63,934 bases of DNA, taken from the NCBI GenBank assembly GCA_030324005.1, contig JARDVH010000130.1:12792503-12856436 (forward strand), read 5' to 3'. The notes below the pieces were generated by a model, which saw only the letters and a list, made by a program, of their open reading frames with translations, did no database searches and was not told the origin of the DNA. Origin of the DNA: Negaprion brevirostris (Eukaryota). Position 1 is the first letter of the stretch. The number at the start of each line of letters is the position of its first letter. Both the position numbers and the translations under genes were made by a program. This document shows, one piece after another, positions 2,843 to 63,934 of the stretch.

Positions 2843-2900
2843 AATGCATCCTGTAAAGGGTGTTGCCAATGTGTACTGATAGTGGAGAGAGTGAATGTTT

Positions 2901-3557
2901 AATTTGATTTGGTTTATTATTGCCACATGTATACAGCCAAAAGTATTGTTTCTTGCGCGCTTTTCAGACAAAGCATACTATACGTAGAGAAGGAAAGGAG
3001 TACAGAATGTAGTGCTACAGTCATAGCTGTGGTGCAGAGAAAGATGAACTTAACATAGGTCTGTTAAAAAGTCTGATGACAGCAGGGAAGAAGCTGTTTT
3101 TAAGTCTGTTGGTATGTGACCTCAGACTTTTGTATCTTTTTCCTGACAGAAGAAGGTGGAAGAGAGAGTCCAGGGTGCATAGGGTCCTTGATTATGCTGG
3201 TTGCTTTTCCAAGGCAGCGGGAATTCTAGACAGTGTCAATGAATGGGAGGTTTGCTTCATTAATAACCCTTTGTAGTTTCCTGCAGTCTTGGACAGAGCA
3301 GGAATGCTTTCTATGGTGCACAGTAGAAGCTGGTGAGAGTTGCAGTGGACATGCCAAATTTCCTTAGTCTCCCGAGAAAGCAGAGGCATTGGAGGGCTTT
3401 CTTATCTATAGGATCTGCATGGAGGAACAGGACAGGTTGATGGTGATCTGGACACCTAAAAGCTTGAAGCTCTTGACAATTTCTACTTCATCTCCATTGA
3501 CGTAGACAGCCCTCCACTATTTTTCCTGAAGTCAATGACTATTTCTTTTGTTTTGTT
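2901..3557 (-). mobile_element. Rex1/Babar LINE 3' fragment
   Basis: Reverse complement matches the 3' part of 30437-33298 (tail and the LRKFGMS region). Confidence 0.8.
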
Positions 3558-4356: not shown

Positions 4357-4846
4357 AATCAAAGAACCCTACAGTGCAGAAGGAGGCTATTTGGCCCATC
4401 GAGTCTGCACCAACCACAATCCCACCCAGGCCCTATCCTCATAATCCCATGCATTTGCCCTAGCTAGTCCCCCTGACATTAAGGATCAATTTAGCACGGC
4501 CAACCCACCTAACTCACACATTTGTCGACTGTGGGAGGAAACCGGACCACCTGAAGGAAACCCACACAGACGTGGGGCGAATGTGCAGATTCTACACACA
4601 CACACAGTCACCCGAGGCCGGTACTGAACCCAGGTCAATGGTGCTGTGAGGTAGGAGGGATGACAAGGTAAAATCTGATATGGAAATGAATGGCCATGAT
4701 TGGGAGGGTACTAACCTGCACCCTCCTAACCTACACAACTCAGACATGGGGAGAACGTACAAATTCCACACAGACAGTGACCAAAGCTGGGAATTGAACC
4801 CGCATTCCTGGCTATGTGAAGCAACAGTGCTAATCAATGTGCCACC
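4357..4846 (-). mobile_element. HE1-type V-SINE (4357-4655) plus a partial second copy (~4712-4846)
   Basis: ctacagtgcagaaggaggc...cccatcgagtctgcacc tail, gactgtgggaggaaaccgga body, gctgtgagg head. Confidence 0.8.
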
Positions 4847-6492: not shown

Positions 6493-8478
6493 CATACAAA
6501 TTAGGAGCAAATCTAAGCCAATTGGCACTCTCACGAGCCTACTCAACGTTCAGTAAGATCAAAGCTGATCAAATTTTGGCCTCAGCTCTGCATTCCGCCT
6601 ATCCCCAATAAACTTTGACTCTCTTATTAGTCAGGAATCTATCTACCTCTGCCTTAAAAATATTCACTGACACTGCCTCCACTGCTGTCTGGGGAAGAGA
6701 GTTCCAAAGATTCTCTGGGAGAAAATACTTCTTCTCATCTCCATCTTAAATGAGAGACACTTTATTTTTCAACCGTGTCCCCAAGTTCTAGTCTCTTCCA
6801 CAAGGGGAAACATCCTTTCAGCNNNNNNNNNNNNNNNNNNNNNNNNNNNNNNNNNNNNNNNNNNNNNNNNNNNNNNNNNNNNNNNNNNNNNNNNNNNNNN
6901 NNNNNNNNNNNNNNNNNNNNNNCCAAGTTCTAGTCTCTTCCACAAGGGGAAACATCCTTTCAGCATCCACCCTATCGCCTTCATTCAAGATCTTACGTGT
7001 TTCAATAAGATTGCCTCTCATTCTTCAAAACAAGAAAAAATAAAGACTAGCCTGTCCAATCTCTCCATGTAAGATCACACCCATCCAGATACCAGTCGAG
7101 TGAATGTTCTCTGAACTGCTTCTAACGCTTTCATATCTTTTCTTAAAAAAGGAGATCAAAACTATATAAAGTACTCTAGGTGTGGTCTCACCAACACACT
7201 GCACAATGTTAGCAAAACATCCCTACTCCCATGCTGCAAACCTCTATGACTCTATAAATGTTCCATTCCCCTTGCAATAAACACCTGCATTCCATTTGTC
7301 TTCTTAATCACTTGCTGTATCTGCATTATTACTTTTCTTGATTCATATATCAAGACATCCTTCCATAGCTCATAATTCTGCAATCTCTCTCCACTTAAAT
7401 AATATGCTGCTTTTCTATTCTTCCTGCCACATACTCATACTGTCATGTACGTATGAGTCATACGTCTCATACTCCGTCTGCCATTATTTTGCCCATTCAC
7501 TTCACCTATCCATGTCTCTTTGCAGGCTCCTTGTGTCCCCTTCACAATCTGCTTTCCTACCTATCTTTGTGTCATCAACAAACTTAACAAGCATGGGCCA
7601 GATTGTCGAACCTGCCCGCAGCCTGGATTTTCCACTTCAGCAAATGGAGATTTGGCCGAATGTCAAACTCCCCATTCTCAATGGCAGTGGCGGCAGGGCA
7701 TGAACAGTCAGGGAGCTCCAGTCCATACATTTGGTCCCTTCACACAAATCACTGATATGAATTGTAAATAGTTGACGCCCCAGCACCGATCCCAGTGGCA
7801 CTCTATTCATCGCACCTTGCTAACCAGAAAAAGACCCATGAATACCTATTCTCTACTTCTTGTTAGCTAACCAATCCTCTACACACGCCAATATATTACC
7901 CTCTATATCGTAAGTCTTATTTTGTGTCATAACCTTTGAATGTGGCACCTTGTCAAATGTCTTCTGGAAATCCAAGTACACATACCTACTGATTCCCTTT
8001 TATCCATGCTTGTCACTTTCTCAAAGAACTCCAATAAATTAGTCAAACATGATTCCCCTTACACAAAACCACACTGACTCTGCCTACTTACACAGATTTT
8101 ATAAATACCCGGCTCAAATTTCCTTAATAGTAGATTCCAGCAGGATCTGAGTATTTGTCAGATTTTTATCCAATAATTTTCTCTGTACCCTTTCCCTGGT
8201 GAGTATAATTGTTTTAAGTTCTTTCCTCCCTTACACGTCCAGATCCTTAATTTTTTCTGGGATGTTACTTGTATCTCTCCAATGAAAACAGACGCAAAAT
8301 ATGTACTTAATGAATTTGCCATTTCCTTATTTTCCATTATTAATTTTCTATTTTCACTCCAGAAGACCAACAATCACTTTATATACTCTTCTTTTTTAAA
8401 AATACATTTTTAAAAAAAAATCTGCAGAAACTTTTACAGTTTGTGCATTTCTAGCTAGCTTTCTCTTGTGTTCTAATT
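6493..8478 (-). mobile_element. CR1/HER1-like LINE, internally deleted and decayed
   Basis: Minus-strand peptides MRGNLIETRKIL...DRVDAERMFPLV and NKEMANSLSTYFASVF are CR1 ORF2 signatures; 3' tail at ~6495-6570. Confidence 0.85.
7595..7723. mobile_element. MITE (Harbinger-like family) inserted in CR1
   Basis: Similar to 14753-14878 and 35244-35379; possible CAT target duplication; host resumes after it. Confidence 0.6.
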
Positions 8479-13559: not shown

Positions 13560-14345
13560 CTCACAACTCCTTGTTTGAATCCTTATCATTAACTTGCTCT
13601 TCCTTCTGCAGCATTAAAACCCTAAGCAAAGACTGACTGACATTCTCCATTGTTGAGACCATGGTGCCTTGTCCAATGTATTTGACCTCTTTATTGCCAT
13701 CATCACAGTTGACCGTACATCATCCACTAATACCCTTCTGCATTGTCCAGCTATGTGGCAGCACCCTCGCCTGGTTCCTCTCATACCCAATTTGATCATA
13801 ATTAAAAGATCTCTAAAAATGGCTTTGCCTCCCATTCTCATTCTACCAGCTCCCATTCTTCATCTTTCTCAAGGGTTCAGCTTCTTCACATACAGTACTT
13901 ACACTGCTGCTTCACAGTGCCCAGGACCCTGGTTCAAGTACTGGCTTGGATCACTGTCTGTGGGGTGTTTGCACATTCTCCCCATGTCCGTATGACTTTC
14001 CTCTGGGTGCTCTGGTTTCATCCCACTGTGCAAAGATGTGTGGGCTCGGTGGATTGGACGTGTTAAATTGCCCCTTAGTGTCAGAGGGACTAGCTAGGGT
14101 AAATGCATGTGGTTATGGGGATAGGACTTGGTTGGGGTTGTGGTTGCTGCAGACTCGATGGGCTGAATGGCCTCCTTCTGCACAGTAGGATGCTATGCTA
14201 TGACTAATTCTTCATCAACTCTCAGAACCCTTCCACTTTCTCTTTCATTTCAGATTATTCATTCAACATCCACTACTGGATAAATGTCAACATCTTCCAG
14301 TTAAACATTGGGAAGATATTCATCATGTGTGTCTATTACAACCCT
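13560..14345 (+). mobile_element. Highly decayed L2 RT remnant (hosts an HE1 SINE)
   Basis: FDLFIAIITVDR resembles LDLSAAFDTVDH; WINVNIFQLNIGK resembles WMxxNFLQLNxGK. Confidence 0.5.
13893..14200 (+). mobile_element. HE1-type V-SINE
   Basis: Complete head, body and tgcagactcgatgggctgaatggcctccttctgcac tail. Confidence 0.85.
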
Positions 14346-16119: not shown

Positions 16120-17053
16120 GGGCCCTATTTCACCATTTTGATTCTAAGTGCTGGGTGGGAGTGTTTCAGATCCAACTTTTGAACCCGTTCTCAGGCGTCT
16201 CCATATACACACTGCCTGAAAAAATATCGGCAATTTCAAATCGTTCTGCAGAAGGTAGGAGGGGCTTAACACACCTGAAACTCTGCAGCTCCAATTGGTG
16301 CCTCCAACTGCACATGTGCAGAAGGAAAAAATGATTGGATGCAGCTCCCCTACCAAATCTCTCCCAGGCTGGCTAGTGCCTCCCCCTGATCCCCAGTGAC
16401 ATAGCACCACCGCCCCCCCCAACATTACTGACTCCCTTATCCTGTCACACAGATCAATCGCAGGCCCCTCCCCCATACTGATCTCAGGCAAAATTGCAGC
16501 AGACTTTCCTCCCTCACCCCACCCCTCCTCCTGATTTCAGGTAGAGTGGCCACAGACCACCCCCGTCCCACCCACTGATCTCAAGCAGAGTGTCAGTGGA
16601 CCCATCACCCGTCACTGATCTCAAGCAGAGGGGCAGTGGACCCATCACCCGTCACTGATCTCAAGCAGAGGGGCAGTGGATGCCCCCTTCCCCCCACCTC
16701 CACCAATCTCAAGCAGAGAGTTGTCGGATGCTCAGCAATTACCTTTTCACTAACTGCAGCACCCGAATCAGACTTATGTGGAGCATACCTGTTTTATGCC
16801 GATTCTGGATGGGTAAAGGGAGAAGTGCCAGTAAGGTTGGGTGTGCAGCCCATTAAGTTAATTTAAATGCATGCAAATACATTTAAATGGCCACCATGGC
16901 TGTTTTGGGTATAGTCCCAACCGTAGCCATTTTTGGTAAAAGGGGAATCGACGCGGAGGTGGGCACTGATTGTGCCACTTGCCTCACACCCGACTTTACC
17001 AAACTTTTACACCTGAAAATGGGTGCAATGCGATGGTAAAAAGAATCGGGCCC
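16120..17053. mobile_element. 934-bp non-autonomous DNA transposon, PIF/Harbinger-like
   Basis: GGGCCC termini with imperfect terminal inverted repeats (gggccctatttcaccat / atggtaaaaagaatcgggccc) and an exact TGA duplication at 16117-16119 and 17054-17056. Confidence 0.75.
16477..16720 (+). repeat. 40-bp minisatellite inside the transposon
   Basis: cactgatctcaagcagag... units start at 16573, 16613 and 16653, with diverged units on either side. Confidence 0.85.
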
Positions 17054-23015: not shown

Positions 23016-23592
23016 TTAAGTAATGATATCGCATTGTTCCATGACAAAATGAGAGGTGTCGTATGCTCTCCGCTTAATAGGATTCCCAAAACCCAGAGTG
23101 GAATGCCCATTTGACTTAATGGTGCTGGCAAACAAGTCCACCAATGAGTCCATAAAGTGAGATGCTCACTTCAAGACAGCAGCAAAGATGGCCGGATTAC
23201 AAAGGTACCCAGACTGGCAGGGTTATTTGAGAAAGGTTTGCTGCTGGGTAGCCAATGCTACCCGCCTGAGCCCTTGCTCATGACAGTCATGAAGAACAAC
23301 AGAGTGCACTCACATTGAGATGATAAGCTACCAGTGTTTTAAATGCTCAAACAGACATAGGGAGCCCTACAAAGCAGCTTGGAGAAAAACTCAAAAACAT
23401 CATGCTAGGCTCATGTTGCATAAACTTTGTCATTTCAAGAACGGCTATAAATCTGGGAGCTCCCCAGTCCTCCAGCCACATCCAGGAGGACACTAGATTG
23501 AGTTAAGAAAATATTTAGATGGCTTTCATGGTTGAAGTATTCACCTAAATGTCTCACCCGGCCAATGCATTAGATTCCTCTGTACATTTGTC

Positions 23593-23822
23593 AGCGTTGG
23601 ACTGGGGTAAGCACAGTAAGAAGTCTTACAACACCAGGTTAAAGTCCAACAGGTTTATTTGGTAGCATAAGTCACAAGCTTTTGGAGCACTGCCCCTTCA
23701 TCATGTGAGTGAGAGAGTTGTGACAACTCCCACTCACCTGATGAGGAGGTTGTGTTTCAAAAGCTTATAGCTTGTGCTATCAAATAAACCTACTGGACTT
23801 TAACCTGGTGTTGTGAGACTTC
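23593..23822. mobile_element. Fold-back element: two inverted Penelope-type repeats, each with a decayed hammerhead motif
   Basis: Arms ~23610-23720 and ~23722-23822 are reverse complements around the centre gagttgt-g-acaactc. Confidence 0.75.
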
Positions 23823-25804
23823 CATCTGCACCATGTCATGGGGGCTACATACAGCTGATCTAAAACATGCTTCTTCACCCACACAGATTCCCTTCCTTTC
23901 GTCTGCTAATAATCATACATTATCTCAAGAATTCTGCTGGGTGCCAGTAAAGTAAGTTGCAACTGAATTTAACTTTTTACAAGTGCTTTTAGATATGTGT
24001 CTTGTGTTTTTCATGCTGGTGTTTCCCTTGTTGTCAGTATGTGTTCAAAAACCTAACCCATTTCTATGTTCTTAGAGAAAGAGCAACAGGAAGCAGAAGG
24101 CCATTCAGCCTATTCTGCCAGTCAGCAGGATTGTGGTTGATCCGTAACCTAAATACTTTTACCTGTCTTAGCTCCATATTCCTTAACACACATGACTACC
24201 GAGAATCTATTAATTTCAGGCTGTTAATTTTATCAACATCCTTTTTTTGTGGGAGAGACTATCACCATCTCTGGGCTTCACCAAAGACTGTCTACATGAA
24301 AATCCTACATGGAAAGGCTGTCTACTTGGAAAACCCTTAGATTTATTAGTCTTGGATCATAAGGTCTTCCAGCCAGTTTACAAATGGCCTACTTGTGTTG
24401 CTGAAATGGCTATTTGTTCGTATTCATTTTCTGGCACATGATCTGAAACATATGTTCATACTGACCTACTGAGGAGGGATGGTACGCTCTTTGTTTTGTA
24501 TTATTACACAAAAAGATATATCATTTGAACTAAGTAAATCTGCTCATACGTGATTTATGGTCAACCCATTGCAAGCTAGCAAAAGGATCATTAAAATAGT
24601 GACTGCCAAGGAGTATGGAAGAAGCTGCATTAGAATATGAACTTAAATTTCCACTTTCTAGCTATTAATTTGAAGACTGCATTTGATTTTGAATCTTCAC
24701 ATGCAATCATACAGCAGATTGACTAAGCTAAATAGCCAAACTCATGACAAGAATACATTTAAAAGATTCTCATATAAAAGTCTAGAATTGAAAAGCCTTT
24801 CTGCAGATTTGATCTTGCTCCAACTCTTTTTGAAATATTTACAAACAACCTGCTTCCATTGATTTCTGAGTGGTTCAAGCATGCAGAGGATACCTGCCTA
24901 GCTTCAAGATACTCCGACTGTAAAACTTGTGGATAATCTGAATGACAATTTATCATCCATCAGCAACTAATACAAAATGTAGATATTTAAACCCACTGTG
25001 GCAAGAGAGAGCTTCATGCTTCAATGTCACATCATGCTTTAACCTTCATCACAAAAATATAAGAAATAGGAGCAAGTATAAGATGTACAGCCCTAGAAGC
25101 TTCTCCATCATACCCACATCCCTTGGTTCTCTGATTACTAAAAATGTGATAACCTCAATCTTGAACATACTTATCAACCCAGTATCCATAGATTGACATT
25201 CATCAGTAAAGAATTCTAAAGCATGAAGAAATTCCTCCTCATCTCAGTTCTAAATGGCCAACTCCCTATTCTTTACGGGCTCTAGTGTGCATCCCTACAA
25301 TCAGTAGCATCTTCACCACCATGCCTTCTAAAGATTGATTAGTGTTTATGGATGTTACTCCTCTGCAATGCAATGGGTTCATGATCTCACCCAGATCATA
25401 CAATGATCTACAAGGACATAAAGGTAGTCTCCATTTTAGCTGATCTGTAATCCCTACTGCAAATATTCACAACCGCCTGTGGCTCTGCATTAATAAGACA
25501 TAATGTATACCTTATGATTTGGACATTTAGCCAAGTAATCAACCTATTTAACTGTTAGGACCCAGGTTAGATAAAGGCTTGTGCAGAACTGTGTATGTAG
25601 TTGTTGCTAGGAATATGTTTCATGTAATTATGTTCAATCAGAACATATGTCATTCTCTTTGGGTGGCACAGTGGTTAGTATTGCTGCCTCACAGTGCCAG
25701 GGACCCGGATTCGATTCCCAGCTTGGGTCACTGTCTGTGTGAAGTTTGCACATTCTCCCATGTCTGCATGGGTTTCCTCCGGATGCTCTGGTTTCCTCCC
25801 ACAG

Positions 25805-26214
25805 ATGTGGAGGTGCCAGCGTTGGACTGGGGTAAACATAGTAAGAAGTCTGACAACACCAGGTTTAAGTCCAACCAATTTATTTGATAGTAAACTCACT
25901 AGCTTTCGAGGTTTCCCNNNNNNNNNNNNNNNNNNNNNNNNNNNNNNNNNNNNNNNNNNNNNNNNNNNNNNNNNNNNNNNNNNNNNNNNNNNNNNNNNNN
26001 NNNNNNNNNNNNNNNNNAAGACTTGAATAGCAGGTTAGGTGTAAAGATTCACATTCTAATCAGTAATCTGTAAACTGTCTGTGCTGTTATATGTTCTGTC
26101 TGAGGCTAGAACCCTTCATTCACCTGATGAAGGGGGAAACCTTGAAAGCTTCTGAGTTTACTATCAAATAAATCAGTTGGACTTAAACCTAGTGTTGTCA
26201 GACTTCTTACTGTG
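25805..26214. mobile_element. Fold-back Penelope-type element with hammerhead motifs and a 12-bp TSD
   Basis: TTCCTCCCACAG at 25793-25804 and 26215-26226; inverted arms ~25835-25917 and ~26134-26214. Confidence 0.8.
26118..26157 (+). ncRNA. Minimal type I hammerhead ribozyme motif (Penelope-associated type)
   Basis: ATTCAC-CTGATGA-A-GGGG-GAAA-CCTT-GAAA-GC-TT-CTGAGT: conserved CUGANGA and GAAA boxes, short stem II, palindromic AGCU stem III, stem I with one mismatch. Confidence 0.65.
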
Positions 26215-26352
26215 TTCCTCCCACAGTCCAAAGATGTGTGAGTTAAGTGGATTGGCCATGCTAAATTGCCCCTTAGTGTCAGGGGATTAACTAGGGTAAA
26301 TGCATGGGATTATGGGGATAGGACCTGGGTGGGGTTGTGGTCGGTGCAGACT

Positions 26353-26639
26353 GGATAGTCAGAAGCTTTTTCCCACAGTGGAAGAGTCAATTACTAGGGG
26401 GCATAGGATTAAGGTGCGAGGGGCAAGTTTTAAAAGAGATGTATGAGGCAGATTTTTTACACAGAGTGGTGGGTGCCTGGAACTTGTTGCTGGTAGTGAC
26501 TTTTAAGGGGCGTCTTGACAAGTACATGAATGAGATGGGAATAGAGGGATATAGTCCCCAAAGCATAGGGGGCTTTAGTTAAGTCAGGCAGCATGGTCAG
26601 TGCAGGCCAGTTCCTATGCTATAATTTTCTCTGTTTGTT
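26353..26639 (+). mobile_element. CR1 3' fragment nested in HE1
   Basis: Peptide ending FLHRVVGAWN...FKGRLDKYMNEMGIEGY; near-duplication cagact/cagtct at the junctions. Confidence 0.8.
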
Positions 26640-29005: not shown

Positions 29006-29258
29006 GGGTGGCACGATGGCACAGTGGTTAGCAGTTGCACCTCAGTGCCAGGGGCCTAGGTTCAACTGTGTGTGGAGTTTGCACATTCTCCCAGTGCCTG
29101 ACTGGGCTCAATTTTCCTCCCACAATCCAAAGATGGGGGGGTTAGTTTGATTGGCCATGTGCATGGTTATAGGGACAGGACCTGGTTAGGATTGTCGTCG
29201 GTGCAGGCTCAATATGCTGAATGGCCTCCTTCTGCATTGTAGGGATTCTATGATTCTA
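29006..29258 (+). mobile_element. HE1-type V-SINE (internally deleted)
   Basis: gggtggcacgatggcacagtggttagca head; aatggcctccttctgcattgtagggattctatgattct tail. Confidence 0.8.
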
Positions 29259-29617: not shown

Positions 29618-30227
29618 TGGTTTTAATAGGAAAGGGAGATTCACTTAAATTCATTTCACTTCAAAGCTGACATTTTCAGGAGCACAACTACAACTGAGTG
29701 AGGACTTGCTGTTGACTAACAAATTAGTAGATAGTGAGTGGGGTGGTGATAACACAACTGGAGTAGGGGAGAGGCTGTAGTTAGGATTGTGATCTCAGGC
29801 AAGCACATCTTCAGACAGTGTCTGCACCTCAAAGAAATTCAGCTCAGAGTCATCAGGCCAGAGTCAACGGTGGAGATGTTTCATGATGAACGAGGGGGGG
29901 AAATGTTATTTGAACCGCAATTCCAGGATGCAGTCATACACAAGTTAATGCTGCCAATCTGGTTATTTGTCCATGATCAAGTCAGGAAGATAAGGGACCC
30001 CCAAGTTGCAGTGCTGGGGAAGGCTTTGTTTTTCCCTTGCGCTTGTCTAAGATCACAAGGCCAACTACAACCTCTCGCCTACTGTAGTTGTGTTGTCACC
30101 ACTCCACCCACTATCTACTGATTTGTTAGTCAACACTAAGTCCTCACTCAGTTGTAGATGTGCTCCTGAAAATGTCAGTTTTCAAGTGAAATGATTTTAA
30201 GTGAATTTCCCTTTCCTATTAAAATCA
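29618..30227. repeat. Element with ~190-bp inverted arms and ~230-bp spacer (probable non-autonomous DNA transposon)
   Basis: 29618-~29808 is the approximate reverse complement of ~30038-30227; left end lost in the gap. Confidence 0.8.
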
Positions 30228-30436: not shown

Positions 30437-33298
30437 GTGGTGTATAAAATGTGCAAGCGAGAGTGAAACAACACAGTCCCAAGGCCCGCCTCCCCAGCTT
30501 GCTCCTAGCAAATGTCCAATCTCTGTAAAACAAGCTAAATGAACTTAAAGCCAGACTCATTGTTCAAAGAGAACTGAGGGGCTGCTGTGTGCTCTGTTTC
30601 ACAAAGCATGGCTCACTCCTGTTTCACCAGACAGTGCCCTACAACCAAAGGACTCCTCAATCCACCAAATGGACCATACGGTGGCCTCAGTCAAGGCTAG
30701 AGGAGGTGGGGTCTACCTTCCAATCAATATCGAGGTGCCTAGGTGCTTCTGCTCCCCGGACCTAGAATACCTCATGCTAAACTGCCGCCTCTACTATCTT
30801 CTGCAGGGTTCCACCTCTGTTATCCTGACAGCAGTTATACCCCACCCCATGTGGATGTGAAGATCGCACTGGATGAAATATACACCACTACAAATATAGC
30901 CTCAAGACCAACCAACCCGAAGCCTTGTTCATCATGGTTGGGGACTTCAATCAGGCCAAGTTCAATAGCATCCTACCAAAATGCCTTCAACACATTGCCT
31001 GTTCTACCAGAGGCCCAAACATCCTAGACAAATATCAAACACGCCTACTGATTTATCGTCCACCCAACCTTTGGCAAATCAGGCCACAAGGCTGCACTCC
31101 TGCTCCCGGCTTACAGGCAAAAATGAAAACAGGAGAATCCGTTAAAGGAGGTTGTGCAATGTTGGTCTGAGAAATTGGATGTTCGCCTACAGAGCTGCTT
31201 AGAGTCAGTGGATTGGTCAGCATTTAAAAATTCTGTGACTAGCCAGAACAAGTATGCCACTACAGTAACTAACTTCATTATTAAGTGTGCAGGGTGGTGA
31301 ATCTCTGGAATTCTCTGCCCATTGACGTGGTGGAGGCTGCCTCGCTAAATATTTTTAAGACGTGGGTTGATGGGTTTTCGATAAGCGAAGAGATTAAGGG
31401 CTATGGGGAGAGGGCGGGAATGTGGAACTGAACCACGACAGATCAGCCATGATCTTATTGAATGGCGGGGCAGGCTCGAAGGGCTAGATGGCCTACTCCT
31501 GCTCCTATTTCTTATGTTCTTAGAAGTCTGTGTACCAAAGAAGCAAATCCATGTGTTTCCTGTTTGCTGAAGTTCAGGTTTGATATCTATACATGCAAGC
31601 CAGGTATGCTCTATGGGGATCCAAAGATGTCAAAAGATAGTATCAGACCAAGCTAGAGTCCCATGCTAGTTACACTACTGCTAAACTATGGCAAGGTCTG
31701 CAAGACATATCAGGCTACAAGTTGAAGGCATGTAAAATCACTGGCACCAATGCATCCCTCCCCAATGAGTTCAGCGCATCCTAAGACAGTTTTGAGCAAG
31801 AGGTCAGAGAGAGCATGCTCTCCACCCTGGAAGCCTCGGATGAACCTGCATCCAAGGTCACCATTGCAGATGTCAGAGCAGCCTTCACCAAAACTCAATC
31901 CACAGAAAGTGACAGTCCGGATGGGGTGCCCAGATGAGCGCACAGATCCTACATGGACCAGCTGGCAGGGGTATTCACAGACATCTTCTACCCGTTTACA
32001 CCAATCTGAGGTCCCTAACTGCTTCAAGAGGATGATCATCATCCCCGGTTCCAAAGAGAAGCTAGGCAGCAGGCCTTAAATGAATATCATCCAGTGTCTC
32101 TGATATCCATCATTATGAAGTGCTTCAAAAGGTCAGGCATATCACAAATCAATTCTGGCCTCCCAGATTGCCTGGATCCACTGCAGTTCACCTACCGCCA
32201 CAGGTCCACAGCAGATGACATCTCCCTGGCCCTGCACTCAACCCTGGAATACCAAGATAACAAAGACAACCACATCTGACTTCTAGTGTCAACACAATTA
32301 TTCCTACGAAACTCATTTCTAAATGCCATGTCCTGGGGCTTGGCTCTTTCCTCTGCGATTGGATCCTAAACTTCCTAACCCACAGACTGCCATCTCATCA
32401 GCCCCTTACTATGCTCTTTATACAACTATGATTGTGTAGCTAAATTCCCCTCCAATTCAACTTTCAAGTTTGCTGATGACACTGGTTTGCTGGCGAGTCG
32501 GATCTCAAACAATGACAAGACAGAGTACAGGAATGAGATAGGGAATCGGGTGAACCGATGCAATGACAATAATCTCAAGGTCAACAAAATAATGGAGATA
32601 GTTTTCAACATCAGTAAGTGTTATGGAGCACATGCCCATGTCTACATCAATGGGAAATAGAAACGGTTGAGAGCTTCAAGATTTTAGGTGTCCTGATCCT
32701 CCCATGTGGACACTCTAGTTAAGAAAGCCCACCAACCCCTCTACTTTCTCAGTAGACTAAGGAAATTTGGCATGTCCGCTATGACGCTCACTAACTTTTA
32801 CAGATGCACCATAGAAAGCATTCTGCCTGATTGCATCACAGCTTGGTATGGCTCCTGCTCTGTCCAAGACAGCAAGAAACTACAGTGGGTCATAAACAAA
32901 GCCCAGTCGATTACACAAACCAGCCTCCCATCCATTGACTCTGTCTACACTTCCCACTGCCTTGTAAAAGCAGCCAGCATAAATAAAGATCCCACGCACC
33001 CTGGACATGCACTCTTCCACCTTTCTGCATTGGGAAAAAGATACAAAAGTCTGAGGACACATACCAACCGACTCAAGAAAAGCTTCTTTCCTGCTGTTGT
33101 CGGACTACCTTATATTATTGAACTTTCTTTACACCCTACTTATGATTGTAACACTACATTCTGCACTCTCTCCTTTCCCTCACCTCAACCCCCTCCCCGA
33201 TGTACTCTATGAATGAATTGATTTGTCTGTATAGCACGCGAGAAACAATACTTTTCACTGTATCTTAATATATGTGACAATAATAAATCAAATCCAAA
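30437..33298 (+). mobile_element. Near full-length decayed Rex1/Babar LINE (APE + RT) with a nested CR1 tail (~31288-31520)
   Basis: LPSLLLANVQSL*NKLNEL; FIMVGDFNQA...STRGPNILD; LDPLQF; FKFADDT; VKKAHQPLYFLSRLRKFG; tail gtgacaataataaatcaaatc. Many stops and frameshifts. Confidence 0.85.
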
Positions 33299-43035: not shown

Positions 43036-43355
43036 ATTCATAAAATTCCTACAGTGCAGAACGCTAACCCTAACCCAGTCTGCACAGACAGAGCATCCCA
43101 CCATCACCCTATCTTCATAACCGCACACAATTACCCCATTAATCCCCCTAGCCTACACATCTTGGGACACTAAAGGGCAATTTGGCATGGTCAATTCACC
43201 TAATCGGCACATCTTTGGACTGTGGGAGGAAGCCGGAGCACCTGCATGAAACCCATGCGGGGAAAATGTGCAAACGTAGTTACCCTCGGCCAGAATCAAA
43301 ACCGGGTCCCTGATGCTGTGAGGCCGCAGCACTAACCACTGTGTCACCATTCCGC
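43036..43355 (-). mobile_element. HE1-type V-SINE
   Basis: ctacagtgcagaa...gacactaaagggcaattt...ggactgtgggagga...gctgtgaggccgcagcactaaccactgtg. Confidence 0.8.
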
Positions 43356-54784: not shown

Positions 54785-56401
54785 TTACAGGTCTGTCTCG
54801 GTGTGTGGGTCCAGGCACAGGGCGTACAGAGATTTCCTGATGTCCGGGGCGCTGTTGGCCTTCAGGTGGGCGCCCGCCCCATTGTTCACCCCATCGCTGT
54901 TCTCCAAGGGTTTGCCCAGCGAGCTCCGGCTCCTCTTCAACTCCTCCGAGTTGCTGGCCTCGCTCTCCGGCTGGTCTTTCAGGTACTGAGCCTGCTCCTC
55001 GTTGTCCGTCTCCCGGTGGTAGAAGTAGTTGAAGTTGGAGACGATGACGGGCACGGGCAGGGCGATGGTCAGCACGCCGGCGATGGCGCACAGGGAGCCC
55101 ACGATCTTCCCCCCGATGGTGACCGGGTGCATGTCGCCGTAGCCCACCGTGGTCATGGTGACCACCGCCCACCAGAAGGCGTCGGGGATGCTGGAGAAGT
55201 GGGAGCGGGGCTCGTCCGCCTCGGCGAAGTAGACGGCGCTGGAGAAGAGGATGACCCCGATGAAGAGGAAGAAGATGAGGAGACCCAGCTCCCTCATGCT
55301 GGCCTTGAGCGTCTGGCCCAGGATCTGCAGGCCCTTGGAGTGGCGGGAAAGCTTGAAGATGCGGAAGACCCGCACCAGGCGGATGACCCGGAGGATGGCC
55401 AAGGACATGGCCTGTTGACCATTGGACTGCTGCTCGGCCAGCTCGGTGCCCAGGGTGATGAAGTAGGGGAAGATGGCCACGATGTCGATGATGTTCATGA
55501 TGTCGCGGGCGAAGACCGCCTTGCTGGGGCAGGCCAGGAAGCGGACCAGCAGCTCCAGGGTGAACCACACCACACAGGTGGTCTCGATGATGAAGAAGGG
55601 GTCGGCCAGGCTGTTGACGCCCGGCCCCTGGGTGCCATTGGCGCCGCGCTGCCCACTGTAGCGGTCATCGCGGAACTCGGGCAGGGTCTCCAGGCAGAAG
55701 ATGATGATGGAGATGACGATGACCAGGACGGAGACGATGGCGATGCCGCGGGCGGGACTGGAACTCTCCGGGTACTCGAAGAGGAGCCACATCTGCTTCT
55801 GGAACTCGTTGTTGGGCAGGGGTCGCTCCTCCTCCTTGATGAAGCCCTCGTCCTCCCGGAACCGCTCCATGGCCTCGGGTCCCAGCTTGTAGAAGCGGAT
55901 CTCGTCGGCGAACATGTCGATGGAGACGTTGACGGGCCGGCGGATGCGGCCCCCGGACTGGTAGAAGTAGAGGATGCCGTCGAAGCAGGGGCGGTTGCGG
56001 TCGAAGAAGTACTCGTTCTTGAGCGGGTCGAAGTAGCGCATCCTCTTGTCGGGGTCGCCCAGCAGGCTGTCCGGGAACTGGCTCAAGGTGCTCAGCTGGG
56101 TCTCGTACCGCAGCCCGGCGATGTTGATGACCACCCGCTCGGCGCGGTTCACCTCCGGCGGCGGGAGCAGCAGCAGCGGCGGCGGCGGGTTTTCCGGCAG
56201 CGGACCCGCCGCGTTCATGTCGTTCATCTCTCCCGCCGCGGGCTCCGGCCAGCGGTGACCACTGCCCGTGGCCGGGGGCGGGGGAGCAGCAGCAGCAGCG
56301 CTCAGAGCCGAGGTACCACCACCACCACCCCTCCGACAGCTCCCCAGAGCCGCGCCGCCCTCCTCCTCCTCCTCCTGCAACCTCACCAGGGCTATGTCCA
56401 T
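54785..56401 (-). CDS. KCNA5: Voltage-gated potassium channel Kv1.5 (Shaker subfamily), intronless, 538 aa
   Basis: Complete ORF with T1 domain ([16 protein letters not shown]...YFFDRNRP), S1-S6, S4 [21 protein letters not shown], filter TTVGYGD and S6 PVP. N-terminus MDIALV and C-terminus [11 protein letters not shown]...ETDL match the Kv1.5-specific termini (mammalian MEIALV...[18 protein letters not shown]). Start context gggATGG is strong. Confidence 0.93.
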
Positions 56402-56411
56402 CCCCCAGCGA

Positions 56412-56459
56412 TCAAATATTCAACAGCCCCGCCGAGACCCGCGTCCAGCGGCCACACAT
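56412..56459 (-). other. Candidate 15-aa upstream ORF ([15 protein letters not shown])
   Basis: ATG at 56459, TGA at 56414-56412, ending 10 nt before the KCNA5 ATG. Presence in the mRNA is assumed. Confidence 0.45.
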
Positions 56460-62424: not shown

Positions 62425-63934
62425 TTCAGGCTATAGGATGAAGGCATGTAAAACTGCCAATGCATCCCTCCCTAATGTGTTCAATGCATTCTATTTTTGA
62501 GCAGTGAGAGCACCCTTCCACCCTAGAAGCCTCGGATGAACCTGTATCTGAGGTCACCATTGCAGATGTCAGAGCAACTTTCTCAAAGGTCAACCCATGA
62601 AAAACAACTGGCCTGGATGGGGTACCCAGACGAACACTCAGATCCTGCCTAGCCCAGCTGGCGGGAGTATTCGCAGACATCTTCAATCTCTCTTTACAAC
62701 AATCTGATGTCCTACCTGCTTCAAAAAGATGACCATCATCCGGATACCAAAAGAAAAGCCAAGCAGCAAGCCTTAATGACTATCATCCAGTGGCTCTGAC
62801 ATTCATCATTATGAAGTGGCACAAACCAATTCCAGCTTCCCAGATTGCCTTGATCCACCACAGTTCGCCTATCGCCACAACAGGTCCCCAGCAGACACCA
62901 TCTCCCTGGTCCTGCATTCAGCCCTGGAACACCGAGATAACAAAGACACCTACATCAAAATCCTAATTATTGACTACACCTCAGCCTTCAACACCATTAT
63001 TCCTATGAAACTCATCTCCAAGCTCCATGACTCGGGTCTCGGCTGCTTCCTCTGTGACTGTATCCTGAACTTTGTAACCCACAGACCACAATCATTAAGG
63101 ATAGGCAACAACTCCTCCAAGATCATCCGCAAAACCGGTCCCCACCAGGCTGTGTCCTCAGCCCCCTACTACATTCCTTATACACTTATGACTGTGTGGC
63201 CAAATTCCGTTCCAATTCAATTTTCAAATTTGCTGATGATACCACCATTATGGGTCAACTCTCAAACAACGATGAGACAGAGTGGAGGAAAGAGAAAGAG
63301 AATCTGGTGCGATGGCAACAATCTCTCCCTGGATGTCAACATAACAAAGAAGATGGTCATTGACTTCAGGAACCGTACTGGAGGACATACCCCTATCTAC
63401 ATTAATGGGGATGAAGTCGAAATGGACGAGAGCTTCAGGTTGTTAGATGTCCAGATCACTAACAACCTGTCCTGGCCCTCCCATGCCAAAACTATAGTTA
63501 AGAAAGCCCACCAATGCTTCTACTTTCTCAGAAGACTAAGGAAATTTGGCATGTCCATATAACTCTCACCATCTTTTACAGGTGCACCATAGAAAGCATT
63601 CTTTCTGGTTGTATCTGAGTTTGGTATGGCTCCTACTCTGTCCAAAATTGCAAGAGACTAGAAAGGGTCGTGAATGAAGCCCAGTCCATCACTCAAATCA
63701 CTCTCTCACCCATTGACACTGTCTACACTTTCTGCTGCCTCAGAAAACAGACAGCATAATTAAGGACCTACACACCCTGGATATACTCTCTTTCACCTTC
63801 TTCTGTTATAAATGATACAAAAGTCTGAGGGCATGTACCAACCAACTCAAAAACAGTTTCTTCCCTGCTGCTATCAGACTTTTGAATGGACCTACCTTGC
63901 ATTAAGTTGATCTTTCTCTACACCCTAGCTATGA
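62425..63934 (+). mobile_element. Rex1/Babar LINE remnant (RT to 3' region), runs off the window end
   Basis: CLDPPQFAYRHNRS...IDYTSAFNTIIP...VKKAHQCFYFLRRLRKFG; collinear with 31710-33150. Confidence 0.88.

Follow-up and report, generated by a model that had tools for sequence, protein, structure and literature searches.

A split SINE and its surroundings

The window, which is the whole stretch of 63,934 nt analysed here, contains a SINE interrupted by an insert with two inverted arms and an assembly gap between them. The 5′ half of the SINE (25660–25804, plus strand, start approximate) is of tRNA type and matches other copies in the window at 72–87%; it has an A-box-like motif at 25662–25678 and a B-box-like motif at 25708–25720. 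The 3′ half (26227–26364, plus strand, end approximate) matches the copies at 4398–4540 and 14017–14167 at 85–87%. The SINE is multicopy within the window. It is putatively HE1, which a passage of PMC3747384 places among the tRNA-derived V-SINEs found in sharks and rays.

Several further features lie elsewhere in the window. The open frame at 54785–56419 (minus strand, 544 codons) presumably encodes a Shaker/Kv1-type potassium channel, and the Rfam editing signal K_chan_RES was found inside it at 55034–55147 with 114.5 bits. Three repeat copies (62426–63934, 31710–33145 and 2896–3557) are 68–75% identical, and we assume from their translation that they are fragments of a LINE-type reverse transcriptase. 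Another inverted repeat, about 190 bp long and unrelated to the insert (29618–29807 / 30038–30227, 88%), starts directly at a different 100-N gap. It contains no match to the strict hammerhead descriptor described below and is possibly MITE-like.

The insertion site is duplicated

The insert is bracketed by a 12-mer that is present at 25793–25804 and again at 26215–26226, both on the plus strand. The same 12-mer was found once each at 1045, 4529 and 43220 and, with one mismatch, at 29114, always inside copies of the same SINE (6 matches across the window versus 0.4 expected by chance). In three of these other copies, the 12-mer is followed directly by the same sequence as the right 12-mer at the focal locus. 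Thus the 12-mer is an ordinary part of the SINE, single in other copies, and the focal SINE was split by an insertion that duplicated the site. This agrees with a previous interpretation made from the letters of the window (the sequence-only reading), which had placed the insert inside a SINE. The same reading described a clean target-site duplication (TSD) of 12 bp. The duplication is there and is 12 bp as written, but the match between the right and the left arm continues into the right 12-mer for two letters. The duplication is therefore 10–12 bp, of which 10 bp are unambiguous.

The inverted arms differ by a one-sided extension

The two arms, 25835–25917 (minus strand) and 26134–26216 (plus strand), are identical at 76 of 83 positions, and 5 of the 7 differences are transitions. 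A separate inverted-repeat measurement of the same arms gave 90 nt at 89%. The inverted arms of about 80 bp in the sequence-only reading were thus confirmed. The left arm resembles a terminal repeat and carries the 3′ half of a hammerhead only. At its outer end it continues into an extension at 25805–25834 (minus strand), which has the size and place of the “tail” of a Penelope-like element (PLE) and is absent from the right arm. The right-arm segment complementary to the visible left arm stops where this tail would start. Measured from G12 of the hammerhead, the outer end lies at 103 nt in the left arm versus 73 nt in the right arm, so the extension is exactly 30 nt. Neither this extension nor the second fold-back described below appeared in the sequence-only reading.

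Toward the gap, the right arm continues upstream of the hammerhead core for at least 106 nt with no sign of a junction. We presume that its inner part upstream of the hammerhead (26018–26117, plus strand) is element sequence. The best outside matches of this part were 19–21 nt with E above 0.1, and no convincing second match to it was found in the window.

A second fold-back of the same family

The window contains a second, gap-free head-to-head fold-back of about 235 bp (~23589–23823), which lies about 2 kb from the focal insert. It has a partial tail on the left, a 15-nt palindromic junction at 23715–23729 and two hammerhead remnants that are more decayed than the focal ones. Its stem II has different letters that still pair. 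The whole fold-back is predicted to fold as one long hairpin (−145 / −128 kcal/mol), and it is flanked by a degenerate direct repeat of 16–17 nt only. Its junction is 16–18 nt upstream of C3, versus at least 106 nt at the focal insert, and its outer ends are 9–10 nt shorter. The two fold-backs, which apparently belong to different subfamilies, therefore share neither the inner junction nor either of the outer ends (2 of 2 copies, n = 2). These different breakpoints argue against the discrete unit that had been proposed. Inversion points that vary between copies were the outcome named in the sequence-only reading as refuting it, and this is what the two copies, of different subfamilies, show.

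On a 48-nt anchor, the focal arms differ from each other at 3 positions and the arms of the second copy at 5, whereas arms from different insertions differ at 7–9. The focal arms are closer to each other than to the second copy, and they stand in a split SINE with a duplicated site. They most likely arrived as one insertion, as previously suggested. We also considered that scaffolding had joined two separate SINE copies across the gap, both of them carrying a PLE end at an identical place in the SINE. Independent insertions at that position are conceivable, for the duplicated 12-mer is a standard SINE motif and the site resembles the tail of the element. However, the SINE halves are complementary, with the 5′ half on the left and the 3′ half on the right, and continue as in intact copies, and the arms share subfamily-diagnostic bases (3/48 versus 7–9/48 differences). 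Such a joining artefact is very improbable. A duplicated contig, in which one sequence was assembled twice, is excluded because the arms are 92% identical.

Hammerhead motifs of the focal insert

We searched the window with our own strict descriptor of the type I minimal hammerhead (CUGANGA, stem II, GAAA-NN-UH and stem I) and used dinucleotide-shuffled windows as the control. The descriptor gave one match (C3 at 26124, plus strand) in the window and one match in 200 shuffled windows. The search with a minimal-hammerhead descriptor, which the sequence-only reading had recommended, thus returned the right arm as the sole strict match, above chance. A relaxed descriptor gave 3 matches versus 24 in 40 shuffled windows and was not discriminating; its match at 16396 was attributed to chance. 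The Rfam comparison recommended at the same time found no hammerhead family, neither at the gathering score across the window nor, for the two fold-backs, at E up to 10. Weak Rfam matches to miRNA, snoRNA and group II families were far under the gathering score and were rejected as chance or hairpin effects.

The right-arm motif (26118–26157, plus strand), assigned by the strict descriptor and by folding, is a decayed type I minimal hammerhead. The 5′ strand of stem I (26118–26123) is followed by the core (26124–26130), an extra A (26131) and stem II (26132–26135 / 26140–26143), which contains G10.1-U11.1. Then come GAAA (26144–26147), GC (26148–26149), U16.1, U17 (26151) and the 3′ strand of stem I (26152–26157). 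The motif is damaged at two positions, namely the G10.1-U11.1 pair and a C-C mismatch at 1.1/2.1 that adjoins the cleavage site. On the minus strand, the left arm retains part of stem II, C11.1-GAAA (G12 at 25907), GC, U16.1, A17 (25900) and the 3′ strand of stem I (25899–25894).

Both hammerhead strings quoted in the sequence-only reading are present. Its count of two hammerheads was too high for the visible bases, in which the left arm has a 3′ half only; the CUGANGA box and the 5′ strand of stem I of that arm would fall in the gap. Likewise, the fully paired stem I with a CUA triplet turned out to be a composite of the two arms, for the right arm has C-C at 1.1/2.1. The CUA triplet occurs in one of the four arms in the window and the remaining three read CUU (position 17 is U in 3/4). 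No complete undamaged motif is visible among the four arms.

The type of motif given in the sequence-only reading is supported. The marks of the Penelope minimal hammerhead are present: the extra base after A9 (an A, shared by the focal right arm and the left arm of the second copy), G10.1-C11.1 and a palindromic 15.2/16.2 (GC in 4/4 arms). At position 11.1, the focal left arm and the second copy have C and the focal right arm has U. One of the four arms keeps the dinucleotide C11.1-G12 intact; the other three have TG or CA, which is what neutral CpG decay would be expected to leave.

The hammerhead likeness could also be incidental, and the insert a DIRS-type element, a MITE or another DNA transposon bounded by terminal inverted repeats. 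Inverted ends and a short duplication would suit such elements. Yet the inverted repeats are not flush at both ends, given the 30-nt one-sided extension, and DIRS elements leave no TSD according to a passage of PMC8969392. In addition, the motif passes the strict descriptor (1 match in 200 shuffles), and a paired stem II is kept with different letters in the second copy. We consider this origin very improbable and rejected it.

When the right motif was folded alone, another structure was preferred (−5.9 versus −9.2 kcal/mol), with a predicted stem I probability of at most 0.01. When 25805–26216 was folded as one strand with N unpaired, the predicted pair probabilities of stems I and II were 0.00. 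In such a model, a transcript across the insert would pair arm with arm and mask the ribozyme. One sense copy of the hammerhead is in view on each strand, and consequently no dimer can form in cis.

These results bear on the idea of the sequence-only reading, which can be put as a discrete fold-back unit that is non-autonomous, has a hammerhead on each strand and is copied whole by a PLE protein. The gap leaves room for a short insert, and a short fold-back of the same family (about 235 bp) exists. Part of PMC3846280 reports that sequence unrelated to the element can be mobilised in trans through the terminal repeats of PLEs, and non-autonomous PLE derivatives are described in sections of PMC8557442 and of bioRxiv 10.64898/2026.07.22.740005. 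Against the unit stand the different inner junction and outer ends of the two fold-backs, the single sense hammerhead per strand, which gives no cis dimer, the antisense arm that is predicted to mask the motif (pair probabilities 0.00), and the damage or incompleteness of the motif in all four arms. We regard the unit as highly unlikely. The same holds for a reading with only a short hairpin centre inside the gap, in which the insert would be one member of a replicating family of PLE derivatives that are non-coding, fold back and have hammerheads on both strands. The description as a short non-coding unit was not upheld: the stated length runs across a placeholder gap, the second copy has other breakpoints, and the ribozymes are decayed and predicted to be masked.

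The gap and the length of the insert

The inversion junction is covered by a gap of exactly 100 N (25918–26017). In a survey of the window we counted 11 gaps of at least 40 N, and 6 of them were exactly 100 N. The flanks overlap exactly at two of these six, and at none of the other five gaps. The two gaps, 2026–2125 and 6823–6922, have overlaps of 15 and 42 nt and represent unmerged contig ends. Because 100-N gaps recur at a fixed size, two of them with exactly overlapping flanks, 100 N is very likely a placeholder. The insert length of 410 bp in the sequence-only reading had counted these 100 N; the known bases are 310 (113 left and 197 right). In general, lengths that span 100-N gaps are not lengths.

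The gap probably hides the inversion point and further 5′-truncated element sequence, from almost nothing to kilobases; alternatively, it may contain DNA captured from the host. Any direct pLTR or partly tandem arrangement would also fall within it. As a special case of the PLE insertion favoured below, more than 1 kb may be hidden. The insert would then be a long PLE insertion, nearly complete or in tandem, whose body collapsed into the gap. The placeholder nature of 100-N gaps and the right arm, which runs at least 106 nt inward with no junction sign, fit such a long insertion, as does the tendency of inverted and tandem structures to break short-read assemblies (noted in parts of PMC8557442 and PMC3846280). 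On the other hand, PLE copies are mostly heavily truncated (parts of PMC4209133 and PMC8557442), no sequence is missing at two further 100-N gaps of the window, and the neighbouring copy is just about 235 bp. A long insertion is a possible outcome, but not the expected one.

The target resembles the tail of the element

At the right junction, the target DNA (26219–26236, plus strand) matches the first nucleotides of the tail at 14 of 18 positions, 2 nt out of register with the end of the right arm. A likeness of at least 14/18 was found at 7 of 123,038 junction positions in the window, all of which trace to the corresponding site of a single other SINE copy, in an ungapped near-register test that was designed after the alignment was seen and that concerns one event. 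No other non-element site in 64 kb resembles the tail as closely as the target, apart from that corresponding site. With free local alignment, 3–9% of random windows (poorly placed SINE windows) scored as high as the target, and in a further local-alignment comparison unrelated windows scored 22–25 versus 23 for the target, which is unconvincing. The second fold-back has no tail-like target (6/18). Elsewhere, the tail-like SINE position occurs at 43227 (minus strand), 1049 and 29118, with 13–14/18 in several SINE copies.

The likeness hints at an endonuclease that recognises tail-like DNA, or at primer-template pairing at the tail-less end. Recognition of tail-like DNA by the endonuclease of D. 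virilis Penelope is cited in a passage of PMC11167929, and PLE site choice and second-end joining are stated as open in parts of PMC8557442 and PMC11167929. It is conceivable, though we think it unlikely, that this SINE position mimics the repeat/tail junction and serves as a recurring pseudo-homing target or as a site of homology-assisted second-end joining. If the position is repeatedly targeted, thousands of SINE copies would offer a ready test of tail-guided targeting and a genome-wide natural read-out of PLE site choice and sealing. The literature searched, with partial coverage, yielded no paper that deals with hammerheads in shark PLEs or with this SINE as a PLE target.

A probable single Penelope-like insertion

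Taken together, the locus is very probably the result of a single integration of an endonuclease-bearing PLE into a SINE, now dead. We prefer this explanation because the anatomy matches published PLE insertions item by item. The structural features present are an inverted head-to-head repeat, a 30-nt one-sided extension and a TSD of 10–12 bp. That the insert works like a PLE insertion is well supported; that it is one is likely, with membership argued from anatomy. The visible bases on either side of the gap contain no reverse transcriptase (RT) or GIY-YIG frame. The left-arm peptide gave 13 candidates, none at E 0.01, and no match among 1.84 billion representatives, which is weak evidence with such short queries. 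A 23-nt arm motif had no match in metagenome, viral and genome contigs. An 18-nt arm motif matched 4 metagenome loci, and all four were rejected as chance matches of 18–20 nt, one of which extends weakly to 34 nt at 82%.

A plausible course of the integration can be outlined. The GIY-YIG endonuclease of the element would make staggered nicks 10–12 nt apart. The top-strand end would then prime cDNA from the outer end of the tail and give the left arm. For the inverted right arm there are two options: the other strand may prime at an inner start site 30 nt upstream (compare PMC11167929), or the arm may form by fold-back self-priming, as proposed in PMC3846280. In either option, where the element inserted, or where its right junction formed, may have been determined by the likeness between target and tail (14/18 nt). 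Neutral decay would have followed. In this PLE explanation, the hammerheads would be passengers of the terminal repeat with no role at this locus. As an element, the insert is one more fossil of an insertion pattern already described.

Comparison with known systems

Animal non-LTR retrozymes (bioRxiv 10.64898/2026.07.22.740005; PMC6765202), as far as described in parts of these sources, resemble the insert in being non-coding and pLTR-related and in carrying a type I hammerhead. Part of the preprint reports them in the single chondrichthyan genome sampled. Retrozymes are head-to-tail tandem repeats with hammerheads on the same strand, whereas the focal insert is head-to-head. We rejected a retrozyme since the visible motifs are on opposite strands and no second same-strand strict match was found in the window.

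Minimal hammerheads on opposite strands, 100–700 bp apart, are a published PLE pattern (Cervera and de la Pena 2014, a passage of PMC4209133). The same source names three marks of PLE minimal hammerheads: one additional base behind A9, the pair G10.1-C11.1, and positions 15.2/16.2 that are palindromic. The words “Shark” and “Callorhinchus” were not found in one of its two supplementary files. Compared with metazoan PLE minimal hammerheads, as outlined there, the motifs here are alike in the CUGAUGA and GAAA boxes, the extra base after A9, the palindromic 15.2/16.2 that lacks a loop III and the opposite-strand pairs spaced by some hundred bp, and G10.1-C11.1 is common to the left arm and the second copy. 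Minimal hammerheads are thought to need dimers, according to passages of PMC4209133 and PMC6765202. Compared with the Schistosoma minimal hammerhead as partly described, stem II is 4–5 bp here versus 7–8 bp, and all copies visible here are damaged or incomplete.

For PAc, the Poseidon element of Anolis carolinensis, the following points come from parts of PMC11167929. Both target strands are cut and extended, and two RT start sites bound the tail. The PAc hammerhead needs protein for cutting and is dispensable for insertion in vitro. Two-strand cutting and extension together with two RT starts would yield the arm asymmetry of the focal insert. In contrast to the focal site, PAc in vitro prefers AT-rich ATT sites, and its RT starts without homology to the cut DNA.

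In sections of PMC3846280, a typical PLE insert has an inverted pLTR and TSDs of 8–10 bp; one of its arms bears a tail of 31 bp, and palindromes occur where the repeats meet head to head. Parts of PMC8557442 likewise describe PLEs with an inverted 5′-truncated copy, a 30–40-bp tail and breaks in short-read assemblies. The closest likeness of this kind is to Pen2a_Av and Pen2_Av of Adineta vaga. The focal insert differs from them in that it has no visible ORF and in its target, which is not AT-rich and is like the element's own tail. It resembles these elements, as partly described, in the head-to-head repeats, the tail of about 30 nt on one arm, the TSD of about 10 bp and the assembly break, and the likeness of the junction palindrome is seen in the second copy in the window.
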